In this document: in pieces, positions 1 through 24,965 of the stretch
Layout of the letters: each line of letters starts with the position of its first letter
Numbering within the stretch: the stretch's first letter is position 1
NCBI GenBank assembly: GCA_024571205.1
Contig: GCA_024571205.1_4523.1
Source of the DNA: a phage
DNA length: 64,000 nt
Direction: 5' to 3' (one strand)
Notes under the pieces: model-generated
Told to the model about the DNA's origin: nothing
Seen by the model: only the letters and a program-made list of their open reading frames with translations
Database searches by the model: none
Made by a program: the position numbers and the translations under genes

Positions 1-41
1 AAAAAAAAACCATCGCATCAATTAACGCGAGATGCAAAAAA

Positions 42-1202
42 ATGAATACTTTTAAAATCGGAACGAATTTTGATTTAGCTCTTCTTGATAAAATCGTAGA
101 GCTCAATAAAACCTATCCTAATAGCTTGATAAACGAAGTATATGGCTCTACAAGAGAAATGGCTTTTGTAGCAGCCAGACCTGATTTTAGGCTTCCTGAC
201 GTTGACAAAAAGATGTTAGAAGACTACGTTAAACGTTGTAACGAATTAGGTATTTGCTTTAACTATACACTCAACACGATAAATCCTGGTTCAAAAAGAG
301 AACTAGTTGAGTGGAAGAAGAAAGCTATTCAGGATTATGTTCAGTATCTTTGGTCAATAGGCGTATGGCGTATTACTATCGCTAACCCTGTTGTTATGGA
401 AATTGTTCGTGAAGTCAATAAAGATATTGAGATTGAAGTTTCAACAATTCTACATGTCGATGCTGTAACTCAAATCAAATACTTGCATGACCAATATAAC
501 ATCAAAAAAGTCTGTTGCGGAATTCATAAGAACCGTTCAGTTTCTTTCCTGAAGCGTGCAGCAGAGTTTTGCAATAAGAACAATATAATATTTGAAGTTC
601 TTGTAAATGAGTTCTGTTCTAATGCTGGTAAAGGGTATACAACACATTGTAGCTATCGTGACTCTTGCTATATTTTCCATAGTACTGATGTTACCGCTGA
701 TGATGCTAAATCCTTAAATGGATATCCAATGCAGCACTGTATTAAAGCTCGTGATACAGACCCATTTAACTGGCTGAGAACTCGTTTTGTTCGTCCTCAA
801 GATTTGAAACTTTATAATGATATTGGTATCACTCAATTCAAAGTTTCAGGACGTACAGGTAGCACAGACTACATTTTGAAAGTTCTTGAAGCATACGCTT
901 CTGAAAAGTTTGAAGGTAATTTGTTAGAACTGTGGAAGCCTTTAGAGACTATTTTCACTCTTGAAAATGAGACTGAGTTTTCACATACAGTAAATATTGA
1001 AACCTCTTTGTTAGATGGCTTTTTAGAAAAAAGGTGGTTCAGACATCCAGATTTTGATTGTGCTAATGAAATCTGTGGGTCAACGTGTACATATTGTGAA
1101 AGGTATTATAAACGTCAATTATCTAAAAACGGGTTAGCAGAAAACTCCATATCTATTATTGATATAACTAACTCTGATGACGCTTTGAGGTACCCTGAAT
1201 GA
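42..1202 (+). CDS. U32-family protein (peptidase U32 / Fe-S O2-independent hydroxylase family), 386 aa
   Basis: Long ORF; motifs YTLNT, ITIANPVVMEIVRE, IEIEVST and Cys-rich FEVLVNEFCS..HCS..SCY resemble the U32 TIM-barrel core (recalled E. coli YegQ/TrhP: VVVN..DPGLIMLVRE..EIFVHGALC); C-terminal CGSTCTYC. Only 41 nt upstream are in the window. Confidence 0.55.
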   Translation: MNTFKIGTNFDLALLDKIVELNKTYPNSLINEVYGSTREMAFVAARPDFRLPDVDKKMLEDYVKRCNELGICFNYTLNTINPGSKRELVEWKKKAIQDYVQYLWSIGVWRITIANPVVMEIVREVNKDIEIEVSTILHVDAVTQIKYLHDQYNIKKVCCGIHKNRSVSFLKRAAEFCNKNNIIFEVLVNEFCSNAGKGYTTHCSYRDSCYIFHSTDVTADDAKSLNGYPMQHCIKARDTDPFNWLRTRFVRPQDLKLYNDIGITQFKVSGRTGSTDYILKVLEAYASEKFEGNLLELWKPLETIFTLENETEFSHTVNIETSLLDGFLEKRWFRHPDFDCANEICGSTCTYCERYYKRQLSKNGLAENSISIIDITNSDDALRYPE

Positions 1203-1438
1203 TTTCTAGAAAAAGTTTTAATTATAAACTTAACGAAGAGATTTTGACTATGAAACTGAACACTAACGAACAAATTCTTAAAAAGGCCCTTATGGGCCTG
1301 TTTGAAACCAAAGCGGCTAAAGTGATTAAAGAACCTGTTCAATTGGAATACTACACTGATGCATTCCTTCATAGTGTTCTTGGAAGTATAGATTCTGAAG
1401 CTTTACGTTATATCAACATTGTCAAGAAATTCAAATAA
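1199..1438 (+). CDS. hypothetical protein, 79 aa
   Basis: ATGA start/stop overlap with upstream gene; soluble, no recognisable motif; internal GGCCC-TTAT-GGGCC hairpin at 1285-1298. Confidence 0.45.
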   Translation: MISRKSFNYKLNEEILTMKLNTNEQILKKALMGLFETKAAKVIKEPVQLEYYTDAFLHSVLGSIDSEALRYINIVKKFK

Positions 1439-1453
1439 GCTTTATGAATTGAG

Positions 1454-1480
1454 TATATAATAAATTGTATTGAGGTAAAC
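1454..1480 (+). promoter_or_regulatory. -10-like TATATAAT plus RBS GAGG ahead of the ThyA-like gene
   Basis: tatataat at 1454-1461, gaggtaaac before ATG 1481; no clean -35 seen. Confidence 0.3.
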
Positions 1481-2197
1481 ATGGGAAAACATAACACAAT
1501 GAAATATATCAAAGCCGCAGATTTTCAAACCGCATTTAAAGCAGTCAATCGTGAAATTTTAGAAAACCCCGAATTCGTAACTGATTCTCGTATTGGACGT
1601 TGTAATGAAATTGGGTCTATGACAGTAGTTGTTGACACTCCATCATCATTCAAAATGACCGACCCACGTATTAACCGCATCTCTTATGAATATGCCGAAG
1701 ACTTCTGGAAGTTTATGATTTCTGGTGGTACCAACGCAGAAGAAGCGTTTAAGGCATATCCTAATGTCGCTAAATTTATTTCTAAACCAAAATCAGATGT
1801 TTTGCCGGCGAACTTCAACACTTTCTATGGCCCTCGCATTGCGGCCCAATTACCAACTCTTCTAAAAGAACTTAAAGAAAAACCTAACTCTCGAAGAGTT
1901 GTGTTCCAAATTCTAGAAAGTTCTGATCAGGCTTTGCTTGATTCGGACGAAACACTTGAATATCCATGTACTGACTCAGTAACTTATTATATTCGTGATG
2001 GTAAGCTTTATACCCACTGTCATATGCGTTCTCAGAACTGTGCTGTTGTTATGCAGTTGGATTTTTATCTCCAAGGAAAATTACTTCATTATATCGCTAA
2101 CGAATGCGGTGTAGAAGTTGGTGATTATACTCATACCATGGTAAGCGCCCATGTGTTTGAACGTGATTTTGATTATGTTAAAGGATTCCTTGACTAA
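1481..2197 (+). CDS. ThyA-superfamily deoxypyrimidylate hydroxymethylase-like protein (gene 42 candidate, dCMP hydroxymethylase)
   Basis: 238 aa; NSRR, catalytic-type Cys in EYPCTDSVTYYIRDGK, RSQN and an Asp (QLD) at the position that is Asn in thymidylate synthase and Asp in dCMP hydroxymethylase; sits upstream of uvsX as gene 42 does in T4. Confidence 0.7.
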   Translation: MGKHNTMKYIKAADFQTAFKAVNREILENPEFVTDSRIGRCNEIGSMTVVVDTPSSFKMTDPRINRISYEYAEDFWKFMISGGTNAEEAFKAYPNVAKFISKPKSDVLPANFNTFYGPRIAAQLPTLLKELKEKPNSRRVVFQILESSDQALLDSDETLEYPCTDSVTYYIRDGKLYTHCHMRSQNCAVVMQLDFYLQGKLLHYIANECGVEVGDYTHTMVSAHVFERDFDYVKGFLD

Positions 2198-3096
2198 TGG
2201 CTATTTTCCGCGTACCAATCTTGAGTATGCGGTCTTATGAAACTGGACAGTATGCTATCCTTAAGGATGGCAACTTCCAACTTCATTTGCACCGTGCTAA
2301 TCCGGGTGATGTGATTACATATCCACGTAATGCATCTGATATTAAAGAATGCGAACGTCTTTTCCCAGAATTTAAGTTTGTTCCATTATGGTATAAAGAT
2401 AACGCGTATAACACTCGTAAATATTTCTGGACTGAAAATGAATTTGTGGTTGATTCATTAATTGATTATTATGATTGTGATTTTCTAATCACAGATATCA
2501 CTGGTTATGGCGGCGCTTTTGATGTAGAATTCAATTTCAATATCACTGCAGACCCTAATAAACCACGTTTTTATATTGACGAATTCTTAAAAACCGATAT
2601 GTTGTCAGTTAATCGTTCACTTCAAACTACCGTGTTGAATGAACGTCAAAAAGAAGTGCTGGTTAACGCAGGTGCAGATGGTAATAAGATTATCGTAACT
2701 CAGAAAGTTATACGTCCTTCCATCATGCAGCGTCTTGTAGGTGATTTGGCTCCTATTCATCTAGATGGTATTTTTCATCCATTTCGAATTAGTGACCCAT
2801 GTTATCGTTTTGAACAAGTGGTTGAATGTGCAATTCAATTAGGTCAACCGCTTTATATAACCGATCCAAATAATAGCTTCGACAGAAATAAGTATCCTGA
2901 AGAAGCGCTGATTCGAATTTTTAAACCAACTAAAACTGAGTACTATCAAATTCTTAAAGGACGCCCGAAGATTCAATATTTCGAAAATCCTGAAGAAGTA
3001 TTCCATCCAGGTCTTGGTGAGTTCATCTACTTTAATGCTTTAATTTCTTCACCATATAATATACCTAAATACGAAGATGTCGTAATCGAGGAATAA
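2197..3096 (+). CDS. hypothetical protein, 299 aa (in the slot where T4 has beta-glucosyltransferase)
   Basis: Start overlaps upstream stop (TAATG); no motif recognised. Confidence 0.6.
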   Translation: MAIFRVPILSMRSYETGQYAILKDGNFQLHLHRANPGDVITYPRNASDIKECERLFPEFKFVPLWYKDNAYNTRKYFWTENEFVVDSLIDYYDCDFLITDITGYGGAFDVEFNFNITADPNKPRFYIDEFLKTDMLSVNRSLQTTVLNERQKEVLVNAGADGNKIIVTQKVIRPSIMQRLVGDLAPIHLDGIFHPFRISDPCYRFEQVVECAIQLGQPLYITDPNNSFDRNKYPEEALIRIFKPTKTEYYQILKGRPKIQYFENPEEVFHPGLGEFIYFNALISSPYNIPKYEDVVIEE

Positions 3097-3097
3097 A

Positions 3098-3646
3098 ATG
3101 GCTAAAATTATTTTAGTAGACGGCCCAGATAATGCTGGTAAAACAACTTTCATTAATGACATAATGGAAATTAGTGAAAGATATGTAAAGATTGATTTTC
3201 CTAAACGAACAGTTGATGGACGTTTCGATGTTAAGTCTCGAAATGAAGTTGGCTGTTTCGAAACGATGTTGAATTATTTAGACCCTACTAAGATTTATCT
3301 GTTAGACCGTGGATATATTAGTAACTGGGTTTATGGACGTATTCGGCAAGATGCGGACTCTGTTCTTGATGTTTATGAACAGGACTATGTTCGTCTTTGC
3401 CAAAACCATGATGTGTTCACAATTATTTTAACACGTAATGAAATGACTGAAAGTTTTGAAGACGACCTTATTACTTTGTCTTCATTCGGTTTTAATACAG
3501 TCATTTCACATTTTGAAGAGTTTGCAATTCATAACAAAATCCAAACGTATCAATTACTTAATCATGATGGTGCTAACAAAATTATAGGATTTAATGCAAG
3601 CGAACGTAATGGTTTGATTACAGAAATCATCAAATGGGCTCGTTAA
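3098..3646 (+). CDS. P-loop kinase, thymidylate-kinase-like (nucleotide/nucleoside kinase family)
   Basis: Walker A GPDNAGKTT near N-terminus; LLDRGYISNWVYG resembles the TMPK DRx..S..Y motif; 182 aa. Confidence 0.6.
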   Translation: MAKIILVDGPDNAGKTTFINDIMEISERYVKIDFPKRTVDGRFDVKSRNEVGCFETMLNYLDPTKIYLLDRGYISNWVYGRIRQDADSVLDVYEQDYVRLCQNHDVFTIILTRNEMTESFEDDLITLSSFGFNTVISHFEEFAIHNKIQTYQLLNHDGANKIIGFNASERNGLITEIIKWAR

Positions 3647-3663
3647 GAGCCATTTAAAGTTTT

Positions 3664-3691
3664 AAATGCTGTATAACCCTTAGTATATAAT
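3664..3691 (+). promoter_or_regulatory. possible MotA-dependent middle promoter upstream of uvsX
   Basis: aaaTGCTgtA box about 12 nt upstream of -10 tatataat (3684-3691). Confidence 0.35.
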
Positions 3692-3744
3692 CGTCTTATC
3701 TTTTAAACATGAGTAAAATATAATGATGCCTATGGAAAAATACA

Positions 3745-4917
3745 ATGTCTGATTTAAAATCTCGTCTGATTAAAGCTTCTACTTCTAAAATGACTGCAGA
3801 CTTGACTAAGTCTAAGCTGTTTAATAATCGTGATGAAGTCCCTACTCGTATTCCGATGTTGAATATCGCACTAGGTGGTGCTCTGAATGCAGGATTGCAA
3901 TCAGGCTTAACTATTTTTGCTGCTCCTTCTAAACACTTTAAAACATTGTTTGGGCTGACTATGGTTGCAGCGTATATGAAGAAATATAAAGATGCAATCT
4001 GTTTGTTTTATGACTCGGAATTCGGTGCTTCAGAATCTTATTTTCGTTCAATGGGTGTTGATTTAGACCGTGTAGTTCATACTCCGATTCAATCTGTAGA
4101 ACAACTTAAAGTTGATATGACTAATCAGCTTGACGCTATTGAACGCGGTGATAAAGTTATTATCTTTATCGATTCAATCGGTAATACTGCATCTAAGAAA
4201 GAAACCGAAGATGCATTGAACGAGAAAGTCGTAGGTGATATGTCTCGTGCTAAGGCACTTAAATCTCTGTTCCGTATTGTGACTCCTTATCTGACTATTA
4301 AAGATATTCCGTGTGTTGCAATCAACCATACAGCAATGGAAATCGGCGGACTATATCCTAAAGAGATTATGGGTGGTGGTACAGGTATTCTTTACTCTGC
4401 TAACACTGTATTCTTTATCTCTAAACGTCAGGTTAAAGAAGGTACAGAATTGACCGGTTATGACTTCACGTTGAAAGCAGAAAAATCTCGTACAGTTAAA
4501 GAGAAATCTACTTTCCCAATCACGGTTAATTTTGACGGCGGTATCGATCCATTCAGTGGCTTGTTAGAAATGGCAACTGAAATTGGATTTGTTGTTAAGC
4601 CTAAAGCTGGTTGGTATGCTCGTGAATTCCTTGACGAAGAAACAGGTGAAATGATTCGTGAAGAGAAATCGTGGCGTGCTAAAGCTACTGATTGTGTAGA
4701 ATTCTGGGGACCGTTGTTTAAACACAAACCTTTCCGAGATGCAATTGAAACTAAATATAAACTAGGCGCTATCTCTTCTATTAAAGAAGTTGATGACGCT
4801 GTTAACGACCTTATTAATTGCAAAGCAACAACTAAAGTTCCGGTTAAAGCTTCTGATGCTCCGTCTGCAGCAGATATTGAAAACGACCTTGACGAAATGG
4901 AAGATTTCGATGAATAA
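3745..4917 (+). CDS. uvsX: UvsX RecA-like recombinase
   Basis: 390 aa; RecA-fold ATPase motifs and acidic C-terminal tail; T4 gene order uvsX-40-41. Confidence 0.92.
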   Translation: MSDLKSRLIKASTSKMTADLTKSKLFNNRDEVPTRIPMLNIALGGALNAGLQSGLTIFAAPSKHFKTLFGLTMVAAYMKKYKDAICLFYDSEFGASESYFRSMGVDLDRVVHTPIQSVEQLKVDMTNQLDAIERGDKVIIFIDSIGNTASKKETEDALNEKVVGDMSRAKALKSLFRIVTPYLTIKDIPCVAINHTAMEIGGLYPKEIMGGGTGILYSANTVFFISKRQVKEGTELTGYDFTLKAEKSRTVKEKSTFPITVNFDGGIDPFSGLLEMATEIGFVVKPKAGWYAREFLDEETGEMIREEKSWRAKATDCVEFWGPLFKHKPFRDAIETKYKLGAISSIKEVDDAVNDLINCKATTKVPVKASDAPSAADIENDLDEMEDFDE

Positions 4918-5251
4918 TCTCGATGATTTAAATCTAGAAATCGTTGATGAATCCCCTTCTTCGGAAGGGGAAGACATTCGCAAAGAACGAGTGTTTAATG
5001 AATCTCTTAAAATTATCCGTTCAGCAATGGAAAATGTCATTCAAGAGATTCTGATTACACTTGAAGATGGTTCTCATCATATAGTCTATATTACAAAACT
5101 AGACTGGGTTGATGGTAAAATCGTAATGGACTTTGCAGTTCTTGACCAGGACAGAAAAGCAGAACTTGCACCACATGTTGAAAAATGTGTTACAATGCAA
5201 GTACAACAAGCTTTTAATGAACGGACCAAGAAAAAATTTAAATTCTTTTAA
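4910..5251 (+). CDS. 40: gp40 head vertex assembly protein
   Basis: 113-aa ORF starting MNNLDD, overlaps uvsX stop by 8 nt; position between uvsX and 41. Confidence 0.6.
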   Translation: MNNLDDLNLEIVDESPSSEGEDIRKERVFNESLKIIRSAMENVIQEILITLEDGSHHIVYITKLDWVDGKIVMDFAVLDQDRKAELAPHVEKCVTMQVQQAFNERTKKKFKFF

Positions 5252-5260
5252 GGAGTTATC

Positions 5261-6703
5261 GTGGTAGAAATTATTTTGTCTCATCTAGTATATGACCAGG
5301 CTTATTTTTCTAAGGTCTGGCCTTATATGGATTCTGAGTATTTTGAGCGTGGACCGGCAAAAAATGTCTTTAAAATTATAAAGAGCCACGTTAACGAATA
5401 TAATGCAATGCCATCTATCAATGCATTAAAGGTGGCTTTAGATAACAGTTCTTTAACTGAAGCCGAATATAAAGGAACTTCGGACCTAATTGAAAAATTG
5501 GCTGATACTCCTGAAGACCACGAATGGTTGGTTAAAGAAACTGAGAAATATGTCCAGCAAAAAGCGATGTATAATGCTACATCCAAAATCATTGAGATTC
5601 AGTCTAATGCTGAACTACCTCCAGAACAACGTAACAAGAAAATGCCTGACGTAGGAGCTATTCCTGATATTATGCGTCAAGCACTTTCAATTTCGTTTGA
5701 TAGTTATGTTGGTCATGACTGGATGGAAGACTATGAAGCACGCTGGCTTTCTTATCTAAATAAAGCACGTAAGGTCCCGTTCAAATTAAACATTTTGAAT
5801 AAAATCACCAAAGGCGGTGCAGAAACAGGTACACTGAACGTTTTAATGGCCGGTGTTAACGTTGGTAAATCTTTAGGCCTTTGTTCACTTGCTGCAGATT
5901 ATCTTCAAACAGGACATAATGTTCTTTATATTTCCATGGAAATGGCTGAAGAAGTTTGTGCTAAGCGTATAGATGCAAACATGCTTGACGTATCACTCGA
6001 TGATATCGATGATGGTAATGTATCTTATGCTGAATATAAAGCCAAGATGGAAAAATGGCGTTCAAAATCAACATTAGGACGTTTAGTAGTCAAACAGTAT
6101 CCTACTGGTGGAGCTAATGCTAATACATTCCGTGCATTGCTTAATGAATTGAAACTCAAGAAGAACTTTGTGCCGTCTGTAATCATAGTCGATTACTTAG
6201 GTATTTGTGGGTCTTGTCGTATCAGAGTTTACACTGAAAATAGCTACACATTAGTTAAAGCTATCGCAGAAGAACTTCGTGCATTAGCAGTAGAATCTGA
6301 AACAGTTCTATGGACTGCAGCTCAAGTAGGACGTGCAGCATGGGATGCTTCAGACATGAACATGAGTGATATCGCAGAATCAGCAGGTTTACCAGCAACG
6401 GCAGATTTCATGTTGGCTGTAATTGAAACCGAAGAACTTGCACAAGCTGAACAACAACTTATCAAACAAATCAAATCACGATACGGTGATAAGAATAAGT
6501 GGAACAAGTTCTTGATGGGTGTACGTAAAGGCAATCAGAAATGGGTTGAGATTGAGCAAGAAGGCATGAACACACCTAACACGGTAAATGAAAACGCAGG
6601 TGCTCAGATGCGTCAGGCAGAGGTGAATCGCACGGAACGCGTAGGTAAAGCCAAAGCAACACGGGCGGACCTAGATAGCTTAGCCAATGAGTTAAAATTT
6701 TAA
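5261..6703 (+). CDS. 41: gp41 replicative DNA helicase (DnaB-like)
   Basis: GTG start after RBS AAGGAG; Walker A GVNVGKSLGL; N-terminus MVEIILSHL closely matches T4 gp41. Confidence 0.95.
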   Translation: MVEIILSHLVYDQAYFSKVWPYMDSEYFERGPAKNVFKIIKSHVNEYNAMPSINALKVALDNSSLTEAEYKGTSDLIEKLADTPEDHEWLVKETEKYVQQKAMYNATSKIIEIQSNAELPPEQRNKKMPDVGAIPDIMRQALSISFDSYVGHDWMEDYEARWLSYLNKARKVPFKLNILNKITKGGAETGTLNVLMAGVNVGKSLGLCSLAADYLQTGHNVLYISMEMAEEVCAKRIDANMLDVSLDDIDDGNVSYAEYKAKMEKWRSKSTLGRLVVKQYPTGGANANTFRALLNELKLKKNFVPSVIIVDYLGICGSCRIRVYTENSYTLVKAIAEELRALAVESETVLWTAAQVGRAAWDASDMNMSDIAESAGLPATADFMLAVIETEELAQAEQQLIKQIKSRYGDKNKWNKFLMGVRKGNQKWVEIEQEGMNTPNTVNENAGAQMRQAEVNRTERVGKAKATRADLDSLANELKF

Positions 6704-6706
6704 TAA

Positions 6707-6730
6707 AAAGGAGACTTCGGTCTCCTTTCG
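6707..6730 (+). terminator. intrinsic terminator hairpin (UUCG tetraloop)
   Basis: aaaGGAGACttcgGTCTCCttt directly after gene 41 stop. Confidence 0.6.
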
Positions 6731-6732
6731 GG

Positions 6733-6762
6733 GTTTACATCTTCCTCTAGGCATGATATGAT
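6733..6762 (+). promoter_or_regulatory. T4-early-type promoter
   Basis: GTTTAC at 6733, then tatgat -10 region; about 55 nt upstream of ATG 6792. Confidence 0.5.
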
Positions 6763-6791
6763 GAACTTACACCAACCAAGAGGAAAACATT

Positions 6792-7166
6792 ATGAATATG
6801 TCTCAAGCAATTTTTACTGCAATCACCGAAAACACAACTGTTGAAGTAGTTTCTCCACTGGCAACCTACGTTATTCTTGCTCCTAAAACTATTGTATCTC
6901 GTATGGAAAACATGGGCAAACGTATCGTACAAATAGTTGGAGCTGGAAATCAAAAACTTGATTATCTGCGAACCATCAAAGCTTATGAACATTTCCAACT
7001 CGAAAAAGGTTCTCCTATCCAGGTAGAACTCGTAAATGGTGATATCGTTCGAGCAATGTTCCATCATTTCTATGCATTGAATGACCCATCTAAAGCGGTT
7101 CGTTTAATTGCATACGACGCAAACCAAAACGAAATCAACGCAGATATATCTAAATTACGTTTTTAA
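6792..7166 (+). CDS. hypothetical protein, 124 aa
   Basis: ORF with RBS GAGGAAAA; first gene of the 41-61 variable region. Confidence 0.6.
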   Translation: MNMSQAIFTAITENTTVEVVSPLATYVILAPKTIVSRMENMGKRIVQIVGAGNQKLDYLRTIKAYEHFQLEKGSPIQVELVNGDIVRAMFHHFYALNDPSKAVRLIAYDANQNEINADISKLRF

Positions 7167-7195
7167 GTTTACTTCTCCAGTAGTTGTGTTATTAT
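7167..7195 (+). promoter_or_regulatory. T4-early-type promoter with flanking inverted repeat
   Basis: GTTTAC 7167-7172, 17-nt spacer, tattat 7190-7195; arms ttctccagtagttg (7173-7186) and caactactggagaa (7204-7217). Confidence 0.6.
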
Positions 7196-7221
7196 AGACC
7201 TATCAACTACTGGAGAACAAA

Positions 7222-7539
7222 ATGAAAACCATCGATTGTAAAGCAGAATTTAAGATTTTTTATCACGGTTCAAGTAGTTCAGCTAAAATCGAAAACATGC
7301 TTTGTCCTCCTGAAGAAACAGGAGTTCTGTCTGAAACCGGACGTAAGAAAAACTTGAATCGTGTATTCTTTACTGAAGATATCGGTTTAGCAAAGATTTA
7401 CGCAGGACGAGCAGCACGCTCTTATGGAGGTGAACCACGTCTCTATCGAGTAATTTCTCCGGTAGATGTAGTTCAAATGAATGATACTAAAGGTGCTAGC
7501 GTATACCACGCAACCTGGGCCTTCTGCGAGGAAATATGA
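7222..7539 (+). CDS. hypothetical protein, 105 aa
   Basis: ORF following a promoter; RBS GGAGAAC inside the downstream repeat arm. Confidence 0.6.
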   Translation: MKTIDCKAEFKIFYHGSSSSAKIENMLCPPEETGVLSETGRKKNLNRVFFTEDIGLAKIYAGRAARSYGGEPRLYRVISPVDVVQMNDTKGASVYHATWAFCEEI

Positions 7540-7748
7540 ACATTGTAGTATTTAAACCATCAACATACGAATTTGCATCAACTACACAATGGAAAGCTCT
7601 TATTCAGGAAGGATGGGAACTAATGATGGACTGCGAAGCATCTGAAAAGTTTCCACACGGCAAAGTGGACTTCGTTAAATTTGCTGTACGTCCGACCAAA
7701 CGTCAAATTCGTCAAGAAAAACGCAAATTTCGCAAAAGTTTAAAATAA
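7536..7748 (+). CDS. hypothetical protein, 70 aa, basic C-terminus
   Basis: ATGA overlap with upstream gene; C-terminal RQIRQEKRKFRKSLK. Confidence 0.5.
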   Translation: MNIVVFKPSTYEFASTTQWKALIQEGWELMMDCEASEKFPHGKVDFVKFAVRPTKRQIRQEKRKFRKSLK

Positions 7749-7750
7749 CC

Positions 7751-7780
7751 GTTTACAAGCACCACATACTGTGTTACTAT
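7751..7780 (+). promoter_or_regulatory. T4-early-type promoter
   Basis: GTTTAC 7751, 18-nt spacer, tactat 7775-7780; precedes ATG 7809. Confidence 0.6.
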
Positions 7781-7808
7781 CTTTCTATCAACTACAGAGG
7801 AAATTGAA

Positions 7809-8177
7809 ATGAAAAAATTAATCGCTTTAGCAATGGTATTCGGATTAACTGGATGTGGTGCTCATGGCTTTATTCCTAATAACGTAGGGCAACTGATTTA
7901 CAATCCAAATGTTAAACAGTATGAACAACCTAAAGTTGAAGTGGAAGACCCGGTTACTGTAGGTAATCGAATGATTCAAGCTGATGAACGTGCTCAAAGA
8001 TATCGTGACTCTGATACCGTAGCATTGTCAAAAGAACAACGTGTTCAAGAGCATTGTTTACAGGCCACTGAAATCGCATTTATTCGTTATGTTGAAACAA
8101 CAGGTAAAGAGCCTACTCAGCAACAAATCATGGCTAACTACGTCCAATGTATTGAACGTTTAAACAAATTTAATTAA
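7809..8177 (+). CDS. putative lipoprotein, 122 aa
   Basis: N-terminal signal peptide with lipobox LTGC. Confidence 0.65.
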   Translation: MKKLIALAMVFGLTGCGAHGFIPNNVGQLIYNPNVKQYEQPKVEVEDPVTVGNRMIQADERAQRYRDSDTVALSKEQRVQEHCLQATEIAFIRYVETTGKEPTQQQIMANYVQCIERLNKFN

Positions 8178-8180
8178 TTA

Positions 8181-8210
8181 GTTTACATCCAATTTAAAAC
8201 AAGATACTAT
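8181..8210 (+). promoter_or_regulatory. T4-early-type promoter
   Basis: GTTTAC 8181, 18-nt spacer, tactat 8205-8210; precedes ATG 8239. Confidence 0.6.
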
Positions 8211-8238
8211 AAACATATCAAATCAAGAGGAAATTATC

Positions 8239-8487
8239 ATGGAATTATTAGTAGTTAGTTCAGTAGCAGTTTTGATCGCAGGTATCGGTTCAATTATCAT
8301 TTACATGTTGCCTTGGGTTATCGCACTTATTCGTGGCACCAAAAGCACAACAGCAATCTTCTTCGTATCCTTACTCTTTAACTGGACGATGATTGGATGG
8401 ATTGGAACTTTAATTTGGTCTATCGCAGCAGAAAAGAAATCTGCCCAACAGACACAACAAGTAATTATTATTCGCGAAAAAGAATAA
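8239..8487 (+). CDS. small two-pass membrane protein, superinfection-immunity (Imm)-like
   Basis: 82 aa, two hydrophobic helices; motif YMLPWVIALIRG..IFFVSLLFNWTMIGWIGTLIWS resembles the Imm-type superinfection immunity family pattern as I recall it. Confidence 0.55.
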   Translation: MELLVVSSVAVLIAGIGSIIIYMLPWVIALIRGTKSTTAIFFVSLLFNWTMIGWIGTLIWSIAAEKKSAQQTQQVIIIREKE

Positions 8488-8491
8488 AACA

Positions 8492-8521
8492 GTTTACAAC
8501 GTTGATAGGTCATGTTACTAT
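8492..8521 (+). promoter_or_regulatory. T4-early-type promoter with flanking near-inverted repeat
   Basis: GTTTAC 8492, 18-nt spacer, tactat 8516-8521; arms gttgataggtc / gacttatcaac. Confidence 0.6.
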
Positions 8522-8548
8522 AGACTTATCAACTAATGGAGAACAAAA

Positions 8549-8707
8549 ATGAAACCTTCAAACTACGCAGTAAAAATTTGGAACGAAGTTAACGGTAATC
8601 GTGATGAATTTTTCAAAGTCATGATTGAGAAATTAGGTAAAAGTTTTAGCATTACAGAACGCAATTATTACGCTATTAAATCCACCCAATATAATCGTTA
8701 TGCTTAA
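8549..8707 (+). CDS. hypothetical protein, 52 aa
   Basis: Below the ORF-track cutoff; RBS GGAGAAC 7 nt before ATG; follows a promoter. Confidence 0.5.
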   Translation: MKPSNYAVKIWNEVNGNRDEFFKVMIEKLGKSFSITERNYYAIKSTQYNRYA

Positions 8708-8717
8708 GGAGAATATC

Positions 8718-9011
8718 ATGAAAAAGTTAACATTAGCAGCAATCTTACTAGCAGTGTCATGTGCACCAGCTCCAGTTACTGCCGGTTATGACAAAGACCT
8801 CTGTGAATGGTCAATGTCAGCAAATCAAGAAGATGTTGAACATCAAATCTTTGCCGATATCATGAACATCACTAAACGTGATCGCCCTAATATGGTTAAT
8901 AAAGTTGTAGAACAACTTCAGTCTGGTGGTATCATGCAGTACAACTATGTTTTGTATTGTGACCCTAATTTCGATAACAAAGATATCGTAACTGAAATCA
9001 CAGGTGAATAA
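8718..9011 (+). CDS. putative secreted protein or lipoprotein, 97 aa
   Basis: Start chosen at MKKLTL after RBS AAGGAG; signal peptide with AVSC lipobox-like cysteine. Confidence 0.6.
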   Translation: MKKLTLAAILLAVSCAPAPVTAGYDKDLCEWSMSANQEDVEHQIFADIMNITKRDRPNMVNKVVEQLQSGGIMQYNYVLYCDPNFDNKDIVTEITGE

Positions 9012-9663
9012 TATGATTTATTATATGCACAAAAATCCACCGTTTAAATACGGTAAATTTCCTGATGCACAATGTTATAATATAACGCCTGATGAAAATA
9101 ACCGTGGATATCTTATTGGCACAATTTTTGTAATTGTTAAAGATAACGAAATCGTTGCCTGGGCAGATTTTAAAGGTACAACACATGATGTTAATCCGGT
9201 GCCTTTCACATATTACAATATAATGGATTTGGCATACGATTATAATTGGTTTAATCATGACACGTTGGCTTATATTGAAGGTGTAGGATTTGATATCTCT
9301 TATTCTAGTTATTCATTATGTCCTATGAGCCGAGCACACGGTAAAGATACCTCATATTTTTCATTTAGGAAACGTGTGAACTTCAAACGTAGCACAGAGT
9401 ATGTCGGTGGAATATTTGTTAAAGATAATCGAATTACTCGTATTAGTTACCCTTTGAGCTGTGGCCAAAAAGATATTGACGTCGATTTAGACTTCACTGA
9501 AAATGTCATTAATCATATTGCTTCCGTATATTTTGACATCGATGAAAAAATTGTAGTGTGCGGTTACGAATTGCCACCGGAAGAAAAGATCGAAGCAATT
9601 GAAGTCGAATTAAAAGTTTCTATTGATGACCAAATCTTTAACGCATTTATGAATCGAGGTTAA
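9004..9663 (+). CDS. hypothetical protein, 219 aa
   Basis: Long ORF, AT-rich, no recognised motif. Confidence 0.6.
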   Translation: MNNMIYYMHKNPPFKYGKFPDAQCYNITPDENNRGYLIGTIFVIVKDNEIVAWADFKGTTHDVNPVPFTYYNIMDLAYDYNWFNHDTLAYIEGVGFDISYSSYSLCPMSRAHGKDTSYFSFRKRVNFKRSTEYVGGIFVKDNRITRISYPLSCGQKDIDVDLDFTENVINHIASVYFDIDEKIVVCGYELPPEEKIEAIEVELKVSIDDQIFNAFMNRG

Positions 9664-11693: not shown

Positions 11694-12215
11694 ATGGCGC
11701 ACTTTAATGAATGTTCACAACTTATTTCTGGTGTTGATAAAGCAGAAGAAGCTTATTTTAATGCTCTGATTCACGAAGATAAAGACCCACTGCAGGTAAT
11801 GCTTGATATGCAGAAATCTTTACAGGTTCGTCTGGCAAATGACAAGCCTGAACATAACAAACATCCTGATGAATTGGCTACTGCTGGTGATGTTGTTGAT
11901 TGGCTGCGTAATCAGAAAGATTATATTGATGATGAATTCCGTGAACTGCTGACTTCACTTGGTGGTATGAGCAATGGTGAAAAAGCCGCTAGCAGTGTAT
12001 GGAAGCCATGGAAAGCACAACATGCTGAATATCGAAATCGTCGTATCGATGAACTGTCTCCTGAAGACCAGCTTGAAATTAAATTTGAAATGATTGATAT
12101 TCTGCATTTCGTTCTAAATATGTTCCAAGGTCTTGGTCTTTCTGCTGAAGAAATCTTTAAACTTTACTACTTGAAAAACCAACACAACTTTGAACGTCAG
12201 GATAATGGTTACTAA
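11694..12215 (+). CDS. 56: gp56 dCTPase/dUTPase (dCTP pyrophosphatase)
   Basis: MAHFNEC start after RBS AGGAAA; MazG-like motifs; matches recalled T4 gp56. Confidence 0.85.
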   Translation: MAHFNECSQLISGVDKAEEAYFNALIHEDKDPLQVMLDMQKSLQVRLANDKPEHNKHPDELATAGDVVDWLRNQKDYIDDEFRELLTSLGGMSNGEKAASSVWKPWKAQHAEYRNRRIDELSPEDQLEIKFEMIDILHFVLNMFQGLGLSAEEIFKLYYLKNQHNFERQDNGY

Positions 12216-23864: not shown

Positions 23865-24965
23865 ATGAAAGTTATGTTTATCCCATCTCGTGCAGTCCCA
23901 TTTAATCCTGAACGTGTACAAGGTGGTCTTGAAGCAGTACATTTAAATGTGTTGAAATATTTAGTTTCTATCGGTGCCGATATTGATTATATCGGTTTTG
24001 ATAATGACACATTTGGTGATTGGAAGGTTAATCATCATCCTGTTGGTCATCTGACTAAATTCAGTCTAGGTATGAGTTATACTATGGCTCGTAAGATTGT
24101 TGAACTAGCCGGCATTAATGAGTACGATTTCGTTGTTACAATGGAACCGACCAAACTAACCGTTCAGGCAATTAAAGACGCAGGTCTCTCTAAAGTTCAT
24201 AAGAATTTTATGGCAACACCATTTGAACCGGTATCTCGTGGTATTGTTCAAATTTGGGACCAGACTATTCAAATTCATAAGAACGGTGGTAAGAGTTATG
24301 CTCCTACTAAAGCCTTCCGTGAATTTGAACGCAAATATTGTTATATGACTTCAGGTCTGACTGACAAAATTGATTATGATTATTGGCGAGCAAATCCGTT
24401 GTTTGAAGCCGAAGATTATCCGGTTATTTGTTTGAATGAGAAACCTGAAGTTCTTCCGGCGACTGATCTGATTATTAGTGCACAACGTTATGACACTAAA
24501 ATGCGTCGTACTGATGTTGCTCTTGAAGCGATTAAAGCACTAGGCGAAAATGGTGCAGGATACTGTCCTAGTAAATGGGCACCACCGGCTAAGTATCCTG
24601 TTATTATTGATGCTCCACACAGTGAAATCATGGAACGTCTTAAAACAGCTAAAGCACTTATCAATACGTGTCCTGACACGGGTACGGTAGAGAATAGTTC
24701 TATTGAAGCCATCTCTAAAGGTGTCCCTGTGATTCAGTTAGTTTTTAAGGATTATCCGCACGCGACATTCGAATATGACCCAGATACTGTGCGTGTAGAA
24801 ATTGATTCCTCTACTCCTAAGAAAGAAGTAGTTGCGCTTTACACAAAAGCTGTATTAGAATTCACTGACACATACGAAGCTCGAGTTAAACGTGCTGAAG
24901 CCGTATGGAAGAAGTATAACAGAGATGCAGTTGTTGCGATGTGGGATAAAATCTTCACAGCGTAA
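23865..24965 (+). CDS. GT-B fold glycosyltransferase-like protein, 366 aa
   Basis: C-terminal GTVENSSIEAISKGVPVI resembles the GT-B E..(7)..E / EA..G.PVI donor-binding motif; N-terminal MKVMFIPS..GGLE; inserted between gene 39 and rIIA. Confidence 0.6.
   Translation: MKVMFIPSRAVPFNPERVQGGLEAVHLNVLKYLVSIGADIDYIGFDNDTFGDWKVNHHPVGHLTKFSLGMSYTMARKIVELAGINEYDFVVTMEPTKLTVQAIKDAGLSKVHKNFMATPFEPVSRGIVQIWDQTIQIHKNGGKSYAPTKAFREFERKYCYMTSGLTDKIDYDYWRANPLFEAEDYPVICLNEKPEVLPATDLIISAQRYDTKMRRTDVALEAIKALGENGAGYCPSKWAPPAKYPVIIDAPHSEIMERLKTAKALINTCPDTGTVENSSIEAISKGVPVIQLVFKDYPHATFEYDPDTVRVEIDSSTPKKEVVALYTKAVLEFTDTYEARVKRAEAVWKKYNRDAVVAMWDKIFTA

Follow-up and report, generated by a model that had tools for sequence, protein, structure and literature searches.

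The three genes located directly upstream of uvsX in the 64,000-nt phage sequence analysed here (the window) very probably, at roughly 80%, represent the core of a Mosigvirus pathway replacing cytosine with mono- or di-arabinosylated 5-hydroxycytosine. The block has already been described (Lee et al. 2026, PMC13326640), and the finding is a rediscovery of a pathway published in 2025-2026. Its value lies in correct annotation, because the names 'dCMP hydroxymethylase', 'RNA polymerase binding protein', 'thymidylate kinase' and 'peptidase' are still in use for these genes in database records. For the arabinosyl-5-hydroxycytosine pathway, Lee et al. also cite He et al. (Nat Chem Biol 2026) and Mahler et al. 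(Cell Host Microbe 2025). Two points are now directly testable, the substrate of the kinase and the synthesis of 5-hydroxycytosine without oxygen.

Organization of the locus and the proposed pathway

The window belongs to a Mosigvirus and is 100% identical to phage CAU_ECP01 over 5 kb (identical at positions 2-5000). Plus-strand ORFs at 1481-2197, 2197-3096 and 3098-3646 specify a ThyA-superfamily protein of 238 aa, a protein of 299 aa and a P-loop kinase of 182 aa, the counterparts of RB69 gp48, gp46:47 and gp45, respectively. Their arrangement upstream of uvsX (3745-4917; Pfam T4_UVSX_C, 1e-38) was confirmed as originally predicted. The first two genes share 1 nt (TAATG), and the kinase gene follows after a 1-nt spacer. 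Further upstream on the same strand, a U32-family gene is located at 42-1202 (RB69 gp50), and an ORF of 79 aa at 1199-1438 (RB69 ORF049c), the start of which overlaps the U32 stop codon (ATGA). Matches of the ThyA-like, 299-aa and kinase proteins to PHROG families (7e-47, 2e-155 and 6e-45) and the detection of homologues in about 345 phage genomes indicate real genes, not chance ORFs. In a scan of positions 1-3800, promoter and terminator signals did not exceed the level expected from shuffled sequence, and the block contained no terminator on the plus strand. This is consistent with co-transcription of the block, but uninformative.

Compared to the RB69 gp45-gp48 cluster and the 'Afh' cluster of HY126, nothing material differs. 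The same genes are present in the same order, with 97-100% protein identity and the same signature residues, flanked by the U32 gene upstream and uvsX downstream, and the genes for the second transferase and the dCTPase are contained in the window as well. When the flanking ORFs are included, RB69 gp50, gp49, gp48, gp46:47 and gp45 show 99, 89, 99, 97-100 and 98% identity to the window proteins, while each HY126 protein differs at 2 to 6 residues. The window has an intact 299-aa gene; its counterpart in the RB69 record (gp46:47) is split by a 1-nt indel.

In T4, the same slot is occupied by gene 42, beta-gt and segA, followed by uvsX, and a TMPK-like kinase, a U32 gene and sugar-nucleotide genes are lacking there. 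The T4 system of gene 42 and the alpha/beta-glucosyltransferases uses methylene-THF and produces a 5-CH2OH group, whereas the pathway of the window would use flavin and O2 to produce a 5-OH group (PMC13326640), with arabinofuranose as the sugar. The original prediction that this slot holds a replacement cytosine-modification module, to which the 299-aa protein and the kinase belong, is supported. The hydroxymethylcytosine chemistry assigned to it had to be abandoned, since the ThyA homologue is an orthologue of 5-hydroxy-dCMP synthases, as detailed below.

RB69 DNA carries Araf-Araf-5-hydroxy-dC (PMC13326640), and for another Mosigvirus the modification was confirmed independently by LC-MS (PMC13390438). 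For the window, the following route is proposed. The ThyA homologue would act with Cys163 on dCMP, selected by Asp194, and use flavin and O2 in place of methylene-folate to form 5-hydroxy-dCMP. This product would then be phosphorylated, a step performed in RB69 by gp159 and for which the adjacent TMPK-fold kinase may be the module's own enzyme, and the modified nucleotide would be incorporated into DNA. Subsequently, the 299-aa protein is predicted to move the first alpha-arabinofuranose from UDP-Araf to the 5-OH group, and a second transferase (23865-24965) would add the second sugar. UDP-Araf would be supplied by an Ara5P isomerase, a bifunctional kinase/uridylyltransferase and a HAD phosphatase, the genes for which lie upstream, just outside the window. 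A dCTP pyrophosphatase homologous to gp56 (ORF at 11694-12215, plus strand), annotated as in CAU_ECP01 and with the role of RB69p028 (PMC13326640), is expected to remove dCTP and to feed dCMP into the pathway.

The ThyA homologue and the glycosyltransferases

The ThyA-like protein (1481-2197) matches the Pfam family Thymidylat_synt (PF00303) with 57 bits against a cut-off of 24 (1.9e-15). It is 98.7% identical to RB69 gp48 (ORF048c) and 97.5% identical to the HY126 enzyme (6 differences in 238 residues), which is itself identical to the crystallised protein in PDB 9iqc. In alignments, Cys163 in the sequence YPC is found opposite the PC of ThyA, where C146 is the nucleophile in E. coli, and Glu160, Asn186 and Asp194 occupy the positions of E. 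coli L143, D169 and N177. Accordingly, the signature L143E, D169N and N177D is present, and the segment RSQN of the window corresponds to RSAD in ThyA and RSND in T4. The Asp noted previously at the base-specificity position is Asp194, and the specificity for dCMP deduced from it agrees with the orthology. T4 gp42 shows only 25% identity and keeps the Asp at the D169 position, whereas the window protein has Asn. D169N is the diagnostic signature of 5-hydroxy-dCMP synthases, and enzymes of the RB69 gp48/HY126 type make 5-hydroxy-dCMP with flavin and O2 and are not hydroxymethylases (Lee et al. 2026, PMC13326640). Together, gp48 and gp159 put 5hodC into the DNA of E. coli, with the oxygen originating from 18O2 and FMN being bound (PMC13326640). 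Judged by its identity to the RB69 and HY126 enzymes, the window protein is almost certainly a dCMP-specific, flavin/O2-dependent 5-hydroxy-dCMP synthase.

The 299-aa protein (2197-3096) had been regarded as an orphan without recognisable motif. At the sequence level this still applies, as no match was obtained in Pfam, including Glycos_transf_1 and Glyco_trans_4, in NCBIfam or in PDB, and the only hit was phrog_3891, a family of unknown function. The predicted structure (pLDDT 95), however, consists of two Rossmann-like domains in a compact GT-B/GT4-like fold, which makes the protein a counterpart of the T4 glucosyltransferases and not an enzyme of new chemistry. The top structural neighbours of the model are GT4-type enzymes, and T4 alpha-GT is also among the neighbours. 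A diverged beta-gt was considered and rejected at the sequence level, as no similarity between the 299-aa ORF and T4 beta-gt was found. GT4-type enzymes as a family retain configuration. A retaining mechanism would agree with the base-proximal sugar being alpha-linked (PMC13326640). The protein is likely to be the first, base-proximal arabinosyltransferase, acting with UDP-Araf on 5hoC. For its counterpart, UDP-Araf-dependent transfer to 5hoC is also a prediction only, and the first arabinosyl transfer was not reconstituted in that study (PMC13326640).

The second GT4-type DNA arabinosyltransferase, the homologue of RB69 gp3, is specified by the plus strand at 23865-24965, between the topoisomerase gene 39 and rIIA, in accordance with the description of Mosigvirus genomes (PMC13390438). 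With phmmer, the protein matches PDB 9iqz/9ir0 'phage HY126 glycosyltransferase' over its full length (2.6e-248).

The P-loop kinase and its substrate

The kinase (3098-3646) contains the motifs GPDNAGKTT and LLDRGYIS, as reported before, and shows the TMPK fold with the P-loop Asp and the FPxR and DR(Y) acceptor-phosphate motifs; the D-R motif is invariant in its family. Asn12 occupies the position of the P-loop Arg in type I TMPKs. Compared to thymidylate kinases (PF02223; vaccinia 2v54, yeast 1tmk), the protein is shorter, with 182 aa, and scores below the family cut-offs. TIGR00041 (NCBIfam) gave 16 bits against a cut-off of 83, confined to the P-loop, and a Pfam scan at E <= 0.1 did not list PF02223. 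The Arg that binds thymine O4 in TMPKs lies four residues beyond the stacking Phe; according to a manual reading of the alignment, it is replaced by Leu58 in the window kinase, next to an invariant Glu55.

Among isolated phages, kinase relatives (E <= 1e-3) were detected in 344 records and 5hodCMP-synthase homologues in 346, with the same host genera. Every T4-like locus with the synthase has the kinase in the same cluster, and this hydroxylase, the first transferase (GT1) and the kinase occur there in varying gene order. The pair of kinase and GT1 is also present in two unrelated phage contigs (L032 and L035), and in small phage contigs, distant members of the kinase family are accompanied by a MazG-like gene and by a ThyA homologue of the dCMP type. 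This genomic context argues for C5-modified dCMP, not dTMP, as the substrate, and 5-hydroxy-dCMP itself has a somewhat better than even chance of being the compound in question. Since RB69 gp159, a gp1-type dNMP kinase, converts 5hodCMP to 5hodCDP (PMC13326640), gp45 may either duplicate this activity or act on a different compound. The identity of the substrate is connected with the question, left open by Lee et al. (PMC13326640), of whether the first sugar precedes or follows polymerisation.

Different functions of the kinase can be envisaged. An ordinary dTMP kinase, or a redundant general dNMP kinase without specific link to the modification, would agree with the TMPK fold, the P-loop and DR motifs, and the annotation 'thymidylate kinase' in many records. 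T4-type phages, however, phosphorylate dTMP with gp1 already. Considering in addition the co-distribution with the synthase, the common cluster, the scores below the TMPK cut-offs and the Leu at the thymine-O4 position, such a function appears distinctly unlikely. Alternatively, the 299-aa transferase could add the first arabinose to the mononucleotide, the kinase being needed because the gp1-type dNMP kinase rejects the bulky Araf-5-O-dCMP, and the glycosylated nucleotide would then be polymerised. The data of Lee et al. do not separate the nucleotide from the DNA level, and DLP3 transferases showed no activity on 5hoC-DNA when taken individually (PMC13326640). Kinase and transferase are also physically and translationally coupled, and the scheme would account for the retention of a further dNMP kinase beside gp159, which handles 5hodCMP. 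It is nevertheless unlikely, as all known phage base glycosylations act on DNA, the second and third sugars are added on DNA, and gp48 with gp159 suffices for free 5hodC in DNA, so that the unglycosylated base has its own way through the polymerase (PMC13326640). The presence of T4 alpha-GT among the structural neighbours of the 299-aa model also speaks for transfer to DNA.

Following the original prediction, the phage would make hm-dCMP and the kinase would activate 5-hydroxymethyl or hydroxyl groups in DNA for further substitution, in the manner of 5-HMUDK in thymidine-hypermodifying phages, with the orphan protein as transferase. In the 5-HMUDK clusters, a small P-loop kinase is indeed likewise encoded near a ThyA homologue (PMC5889632). 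Moreover, some members of the window kinase family carry a fused DNA-glycosylase domain of the HhH-GPD or UDG type, reminiscent of SP10 gp186, in which a 5-HMUDK is joined to a glycosylase-fold transferase (PMC5889632). These fusions could point to a role at the DNA level; their genomic context was not recovered from viral contigs, the broad kinase alignment being too divergent to scan for loci. The 5-HMUDK clusters differ in that they specify glycosylase-fold transferases and in some cases PLP or radical-SAM enzymes, with no glycosyltransferase among the signature genes (PMC5889632). Furthermore, M6 gp54, a validated 5-HMUDK (PMC5889632, Table 3), belongs to phrog_800 (2e-39), whereas the window kinase belongs to phrog_761, and hhalign aligned the two with 81% probability in the P-loop region only. 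The D-R motif is missing in gp54, while the window kinase keeps the acceptor-phosphate motifs of thymidylate kinases, and a function as 5-HMUDK was therefore rejected. With a ThyA homologue of the 5-hydroxy-dCMP type (Asn at D169, 97.5% identity to the crystallised enzyme), there is no hydroxymethyl group to activate, and the RB69 modification has neither a methylene bridge nor a phosphate-derived substituent (PMC13326640, PMC13390438). From chemical reasoning, an aryl phosphate on C5 would also be a poor leaving group for glycosylation. Activation of this kind is thus highly improbable. It had also been considered that the three genes might be orthologues of characterised T-even genes with unrelated roles. 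They are orthologues of known genes, but only the ThyA homologue is experimentally characterised, and its role is related.

The U32 gene and the adjacent 79-aa ORF

The product of the U32 gene (42-1202) matches Peptidase_U32 (PF01136) with 42 bits against a cut-off of 22 (7.3e-11) and is 99.2% identical to RB69 ORF050c. Among its listed relatives, 117 out of 120 have a Pfam annotation, and all 117 carry PF01136. Ten Cys residues are invariant across 36 members of a Cys-rich phage U32 clade, and the window protein has an extra C-terminal CX4CX3CX2C cluster. In MAFFT alignments at 18-21% identity, the conserved Glu and two motif Cys of U32 hydroxylases are aligned in the phage protein; C192 is found opposite C169 of RlhA and C209 in an invariant Cys column, and the position of RlhA C176 is a Gly with C203 nearby. 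In RlhA, C169 and C176 are, together with C-terminal Cys, ligands of the 4Fe-4S cluster. Pairwise similarity to E. coli RlhA, TrhP, UbiU or UbiV was not detected by phmmer, and hhalign produced weak N-terminal barrel alignments only. PMC13326640 gives RB69 gp50 no label beyond 'sugar or heterocycle reductase'.

Directly downstream of the U32 gene, Marfavirus and most of the other relatives outside Mosigvirus have a chorismate mutase gene (CM_2, 6.7e-10), and in contig L032 a DAHP synthase gene follows U32. No CM-like ORF was found anywhere in the 64-kb window. In L032 and L035, U32 occurs with the kinase and GT1 and with no nearby ThyA-like gene. The GT1-family member of the L034/L035 contig is a 334-aa ORF upstream of U32; a TAGT-like protein encoded there was rejected as a GT1 relative. 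U32 is absent from all 57 Acinetobacter-phage records and also from the E. coli Dhakavirus QL01, so that a restriction of its absence to phages of strict aerobes holds in part only.

The known synthase needs O2, and the links of U32 to chorismate mutase, DAHP synthase and kinase-transferase modules with no nearby ThyA-like gene suggest the U32 protein as an anaerobic source of the hydroxyl group. The U32 domain, the Cys-rich, Fe-S-like clade and the genomic link to prephenate supply in relatives would be in keeping with U32 prephenate-dependent hydroxylases. Of these, RlhA performs the same step, hydroxylation of cytosine C5, at ho5C2501 of 23S rRNA (PMC5727448), and the family works without O2 (PMC10990095). 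TrhP (ho5U34 of tRNA) and UbiU/UbiV act on RNA or quinones, whereas the substrate of the phage protein would be a deoxynucleotide or DNA. We consider the odds even that it is a second, non-homologous cytosine C5 hydroxylase, an Fe-S, prephenate-dependent and O2-independent enzyme supplying 5-hydroxy-dCMP or 5hoC in DNA under conditions that stop the ThyA-type synthase, such as those of the anoxic gut. On this assumption, kinase and first glycosyltransferase are proposed to be a portable module pairing with either hydroxylase. In E. coli, the O2-dependent flavin enzymes UbiIHF are paired with the O2-independent U32 proteins UbiUV, and ho5U is formed by a dual route through TrhO or TrhP. The combination of U32 with a ThyA-type synthase would be parallel to both. 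If true, DNA precursors would join RNA and quinones as targets of prephenate-dependent hydroxylation, and prephenate would serve, perhaps for the first time, as an oxygen donor in a DNA-directed reaction. DNA modification, and hence evasion of restriction and CRISPR and the behaviour in phage therapy, would then depend on oxygen and on the aromatic metabolism of the host.

The 79-aa ORF (1199-1438) matches phrog_8601 (2e-50) and is 88.6% identical to RB69 ORF049c. A divergent chorismate mutase was rejected for this ORF, as there was no Pfam match at E=10 and no BLASTP hit, and hhalign against phage chorismate mutases gave a probability of 0.2%. It is located where related phages have the chorismate mutase gene, beside it or in its stead, with no detectable relation between the two. 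The ORF is intact in the window and interrupted in the HY126 record.

Layout and published function of the three-gene block

The block comprises a ThyA homologue (1481-2197, 238 aa), a 299-aa ORF (2197-3096) and a P-loop kinase (3098-3646, 182 aa), at the coordinates originally predicted and all on the plus strand, with uvsX (3745-4917) downstream. The first two genes meet at TAATG, a one-base gap precedes the kinase gene, and a terminator scan found no plus-strand terminator inside the block. All three ORFs strongly match phage protein families (PHROG E-values of 7e-47, 2e-155 and 6e-45, respectively) and are therefore regarded as genes rather than chance ORFs. The equivalent slot of T4 holds 42, beta-gt and segA. 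Over positions 2-5000 the window matches Escherichia phage CAU_ECP01 at 100% identity and many RB69-like phages of the genus Mosigvirus at about 98%. The RB69 counterparts are ORF050c (window 42-1202, 99.2% identity), ORF049c (1199-1438, 88.6%), ORF048c (1481-2197, 98.7%), ORF047c plus ORF046c (2197-3096, 97% and 100%) and ORF045c (3098-3646, 98.4%). Public records disagree on the annotation of the region (window 1-5000) and for the most part misname its genes: the transferase appears as 'RNA polymerase binding protein', the 79-aa ORF as 'P-loop containing NTP hydrolase', the synthase as 'dCMP hydroxymethylase' and the U32 gene as 'peptidase'.

The three-gene block is already known. RB69 DNA carries beta-D-Araf-(1-3)-alpha-D-Araf directly on the oxygen of 5-hydroxycytosine (Lee et al., NAR 2026, PMC13326640), and not arabosyl-hmC, the 2018 view (PMC13326640); a separate LC-MS study of a different Mosigvirus found the same modification (PMC13390438). 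The ThyA homologue of RB69, gp48, converts dCMP to 5-hydroxy-dCMP with oxygen from O2 and FMN bound (PMC13326640), and a flavin-containing crystal structure of the enzyme from phage HY126 is credited in that paper to He et al. (Nat Chem Biol 2026). The window protein scores above the Pfam thymidylate synthase threshold and is 97.5% identical to PDB 9iqc/9ir2/9iqu, whose sequence is exactly the HY126 protein. In the alignment the nucleophile Cys163 is kept, and Glu160, Asn186 and Asp194 occupy the positions of E. coli L143, D169 and N177; the Asp expected at the base-specificity position (N177) is thus present. Asn186 is the residue that decides the class of the enzyme, D169N being the published marker of the hydroxylating branch (PMC13326640). 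T4 gp42, in contrast, keeps Asp at this position (RSND versus RSQN in the window) and is only 25% identical. The idea of a replacement modification module stands, while the hmC chemistry proposed for it does not: the base is 5-hydroxylated, and the other two genes apparently specify a glycosyltransferase and a nucleotide kinase.

The 299-aa protein was not placed in a family by any sequence method (Pfam, NCBIfam and PDB sequence searches), in agreement with the original description of an ORF without recognisable motif. A relationship to T4 beta-gt was rejected at the level of sequence, no kinship being detected. BshA, PimA and others are among the lower-ranked structural neighbours of its predicted structure, and the gene is predicted to encode a glycosyltransferase; its RB69 counterpart gp46:47 is the predicted first arabinosyltransferase (PMC13326640). 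The RB69 record AY303349 contains one extra base here (locus L003, 7099-7999; GTAGTGTG versus GTAGGTG in the window), which splits the gene into ORF047c and ORF046c. It is intact in the window, HY126 and many other phages.

The kinase and its proposed substrate

The third gene encodes a putative nucleotide kinase rather than a kinase activating DNA bases; RB69 gp45 is entered in PMC13326640 as 'nucleotide kinase' only. In a 42-member alignment G9, G14, K15, D70 and R71 are invariant, and D11, K36, S75, N76, Y79 and R113 nearly so. In the family profile, conserved residues align with the P-loop Asp, the FPxR motif and DRY..S...Y of thymidylate kinases (TMPKs). TMPKs use these elements to bind the deoxyribose 3'-OH and the acceptor phosphate, which favours a dNMP as acceptor. 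M6 gp54, the 5-hydroxymethyl-dU DNA kinase of phage M6 (Table 3 of Lee 2018, PMC5889632), belongs to another PHROG, shows similarity confined to the P-loop region and has no D-R motif, which is invariant in the window family. The proposal of a kinase activating hydroxymethyl groups in DNA was abandoned on these grounds.

In T4-like loci the kinase gene clusters with those of the hydroxylase and the transferase in variable order: ThyA homologue, transferase, kinase in Mosigvirus and Acinetobacter phages; kinase, ThyA homologue, transferase in Dhakavirus; and kinase, U32, chorismate mutase, ThyA homologue, transferase in Marfavirus. Distant members of the family (phrog_761) adjoin a MazG-like gene and a dCMP-type ThyA homologue in small non-T4 contigs, in at least one case (L021) also a dCMP deaminase gene. 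Based on the TMPK motifs and this context, we propose a kinase for C5-modified dCMP, here 5-hydroxy-dCMP, with a probability of roughly 55%. An RB69 gp1-type kinase already phosphorylates 5-hydroxy-dCMP in vitro (PMC13326640), which is a caveat to this assignment, and the first arabinosylation might take place on the nucleotide; the kinase could then act on a glycosylated nucleotide. A further caveat comes from eight metagenomic relatives of the kinase (P0179, P0180, P0185, P0187, P0189, P0194, P0196 and P0239) whose C-terminus is a glycosylase-like domain of the HhH-GPD type that by eye resembles MBD4 (WKFF..LN..G, GxGKYaxDSy, DKEL). Pfam HhH-GPD is at or just above the cut-off for P0179 and below it for P0180. 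P0264 has a UDG-superfamily domain instead. The C-terminal domain shows, in addition, weak similarity to a protein from Xp12, a phage with 5-methylcytosine.

In the viral contigs L021 (48 kb; 6001-8589) and L022 (64 kb; 5998-9399), the genes for distant phrog_761 kinases adjoin a MazG-like gene, an unassigned conserved gene, a dCMP-type ThyA homologue, a dCMP deaminase (at least in L021) and a family-A polymerase. The ThyA homologue reads RSCD...FRDD and is thus not of the hydroxylase type; the contigs probably come from phages with 5-methyl- or 5-hydroxymethyl-cytosine that employ the same kinase family. A Morganella phage MP1-like genome (L016, 163 kb) has a clear kinase homologue (5995-6525, 54% identity) directly before uvsX, with a DNA polymerase gene just upstream and no ThyA-like, transferase or U32 gene within 6 kb.

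The adjacent U32 gene and the 79-aa ORF

The points of remaining interest are the kinase and, to a greater degree, the possible link of the neighbouring U32 gene to prephenate. The plus-strand gene at 42-1202 scores above the Pfam U32 threshold; it is not discussed in the text of Lee et al. (PMC13326640). The characterised U32 proteins RlhA, TrhP and UbiU/V are Fe-S, prephenate-dependent, O2-independent hydroxylases, and RlhA produces 5-hydroxycytidine in rRNA (PMC5727448, PMC10990095). Ten cysteines are invariant in the phage clade to which the protein belongs, among them those of a C-terminal CX4CX3CX2C. In a remote alignment Glu185, Cys192 and Cys209 match conserved U32-motif positions, whereas the position of RlhA Cys176 is Gly.

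Relatives of the gene were compared in L023, L007-L015, L020 and L030-L035. In most T4-like relatives outside Mosigvirus, U32 is separated from the ThyA homologue by a small AroQ chorismate mutase gene (Pfam CM_2 6.7e-10 in Klebsiella phage PWKp16), and an unrelated 80-kb phage contig has a DAHP synthase gene after U32 (2.6e-70 versus 2.9e-17 for KDO8P synthase). Both enzymes feed prephenate synthesis. The simplest reading, to which we give even odds, is that U32 is a candidate alternative, O2-independent and prephenate-dependent source of the cytosine 5-hydroxyl. No chorismate mutase gene was found in the window, so that the enzyme would rely on prephenate made by the host. Alternatively, U32 may act in sugar metabolism, as sugar-nucleotide genes are also always near it. 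In two non-T4 contigs, L032 and L035, members of the kinase and 299-aa transferase families cluster with U32, with no ThyA homologue within 6-10 kb; in L035 the genes for kinase, transferase, U32 and a TAGT-type transferase overlap in this order. Other clade members are flanked by a PolIII alpha gene on one side and a gene of the dCMP deaminase family on the other, or lie amid deoxynucleoside-salvage genes. Among phage records, 346 contain the ThyA homologue (57 from Acinetobacter) and 222 contain U32 (none from Acinetobacter); E. coli Dhakavirus QL01 also lacks U32, which is therefore considered accessory.

In an 86-kb metagenomic contig (L031, 10160-12360) a second, very divergent U32-like gene adjoins a radical-SAM/SPASM gene, in a neighbourhood with a phage-type U32, a 5'(3')-deoxyribonucleotidase, a PnuC-like transporter, a dNK kinase and a nucleoside deoxyribosyltransferase.

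The 79-aa ORF (1199-1438, plus strand; RB69 ORF049c) overlaps the U32 stop codon (ATGA) and is broken by indels in the HY126 record. Its family is small and distinct from the chorismate mutases that other genera carry in the same place or next to it. Some phages have both, and in two of the loci compared (L010 and L011) an N-terminus of the 79-aa type is fused to chorismate mutase.
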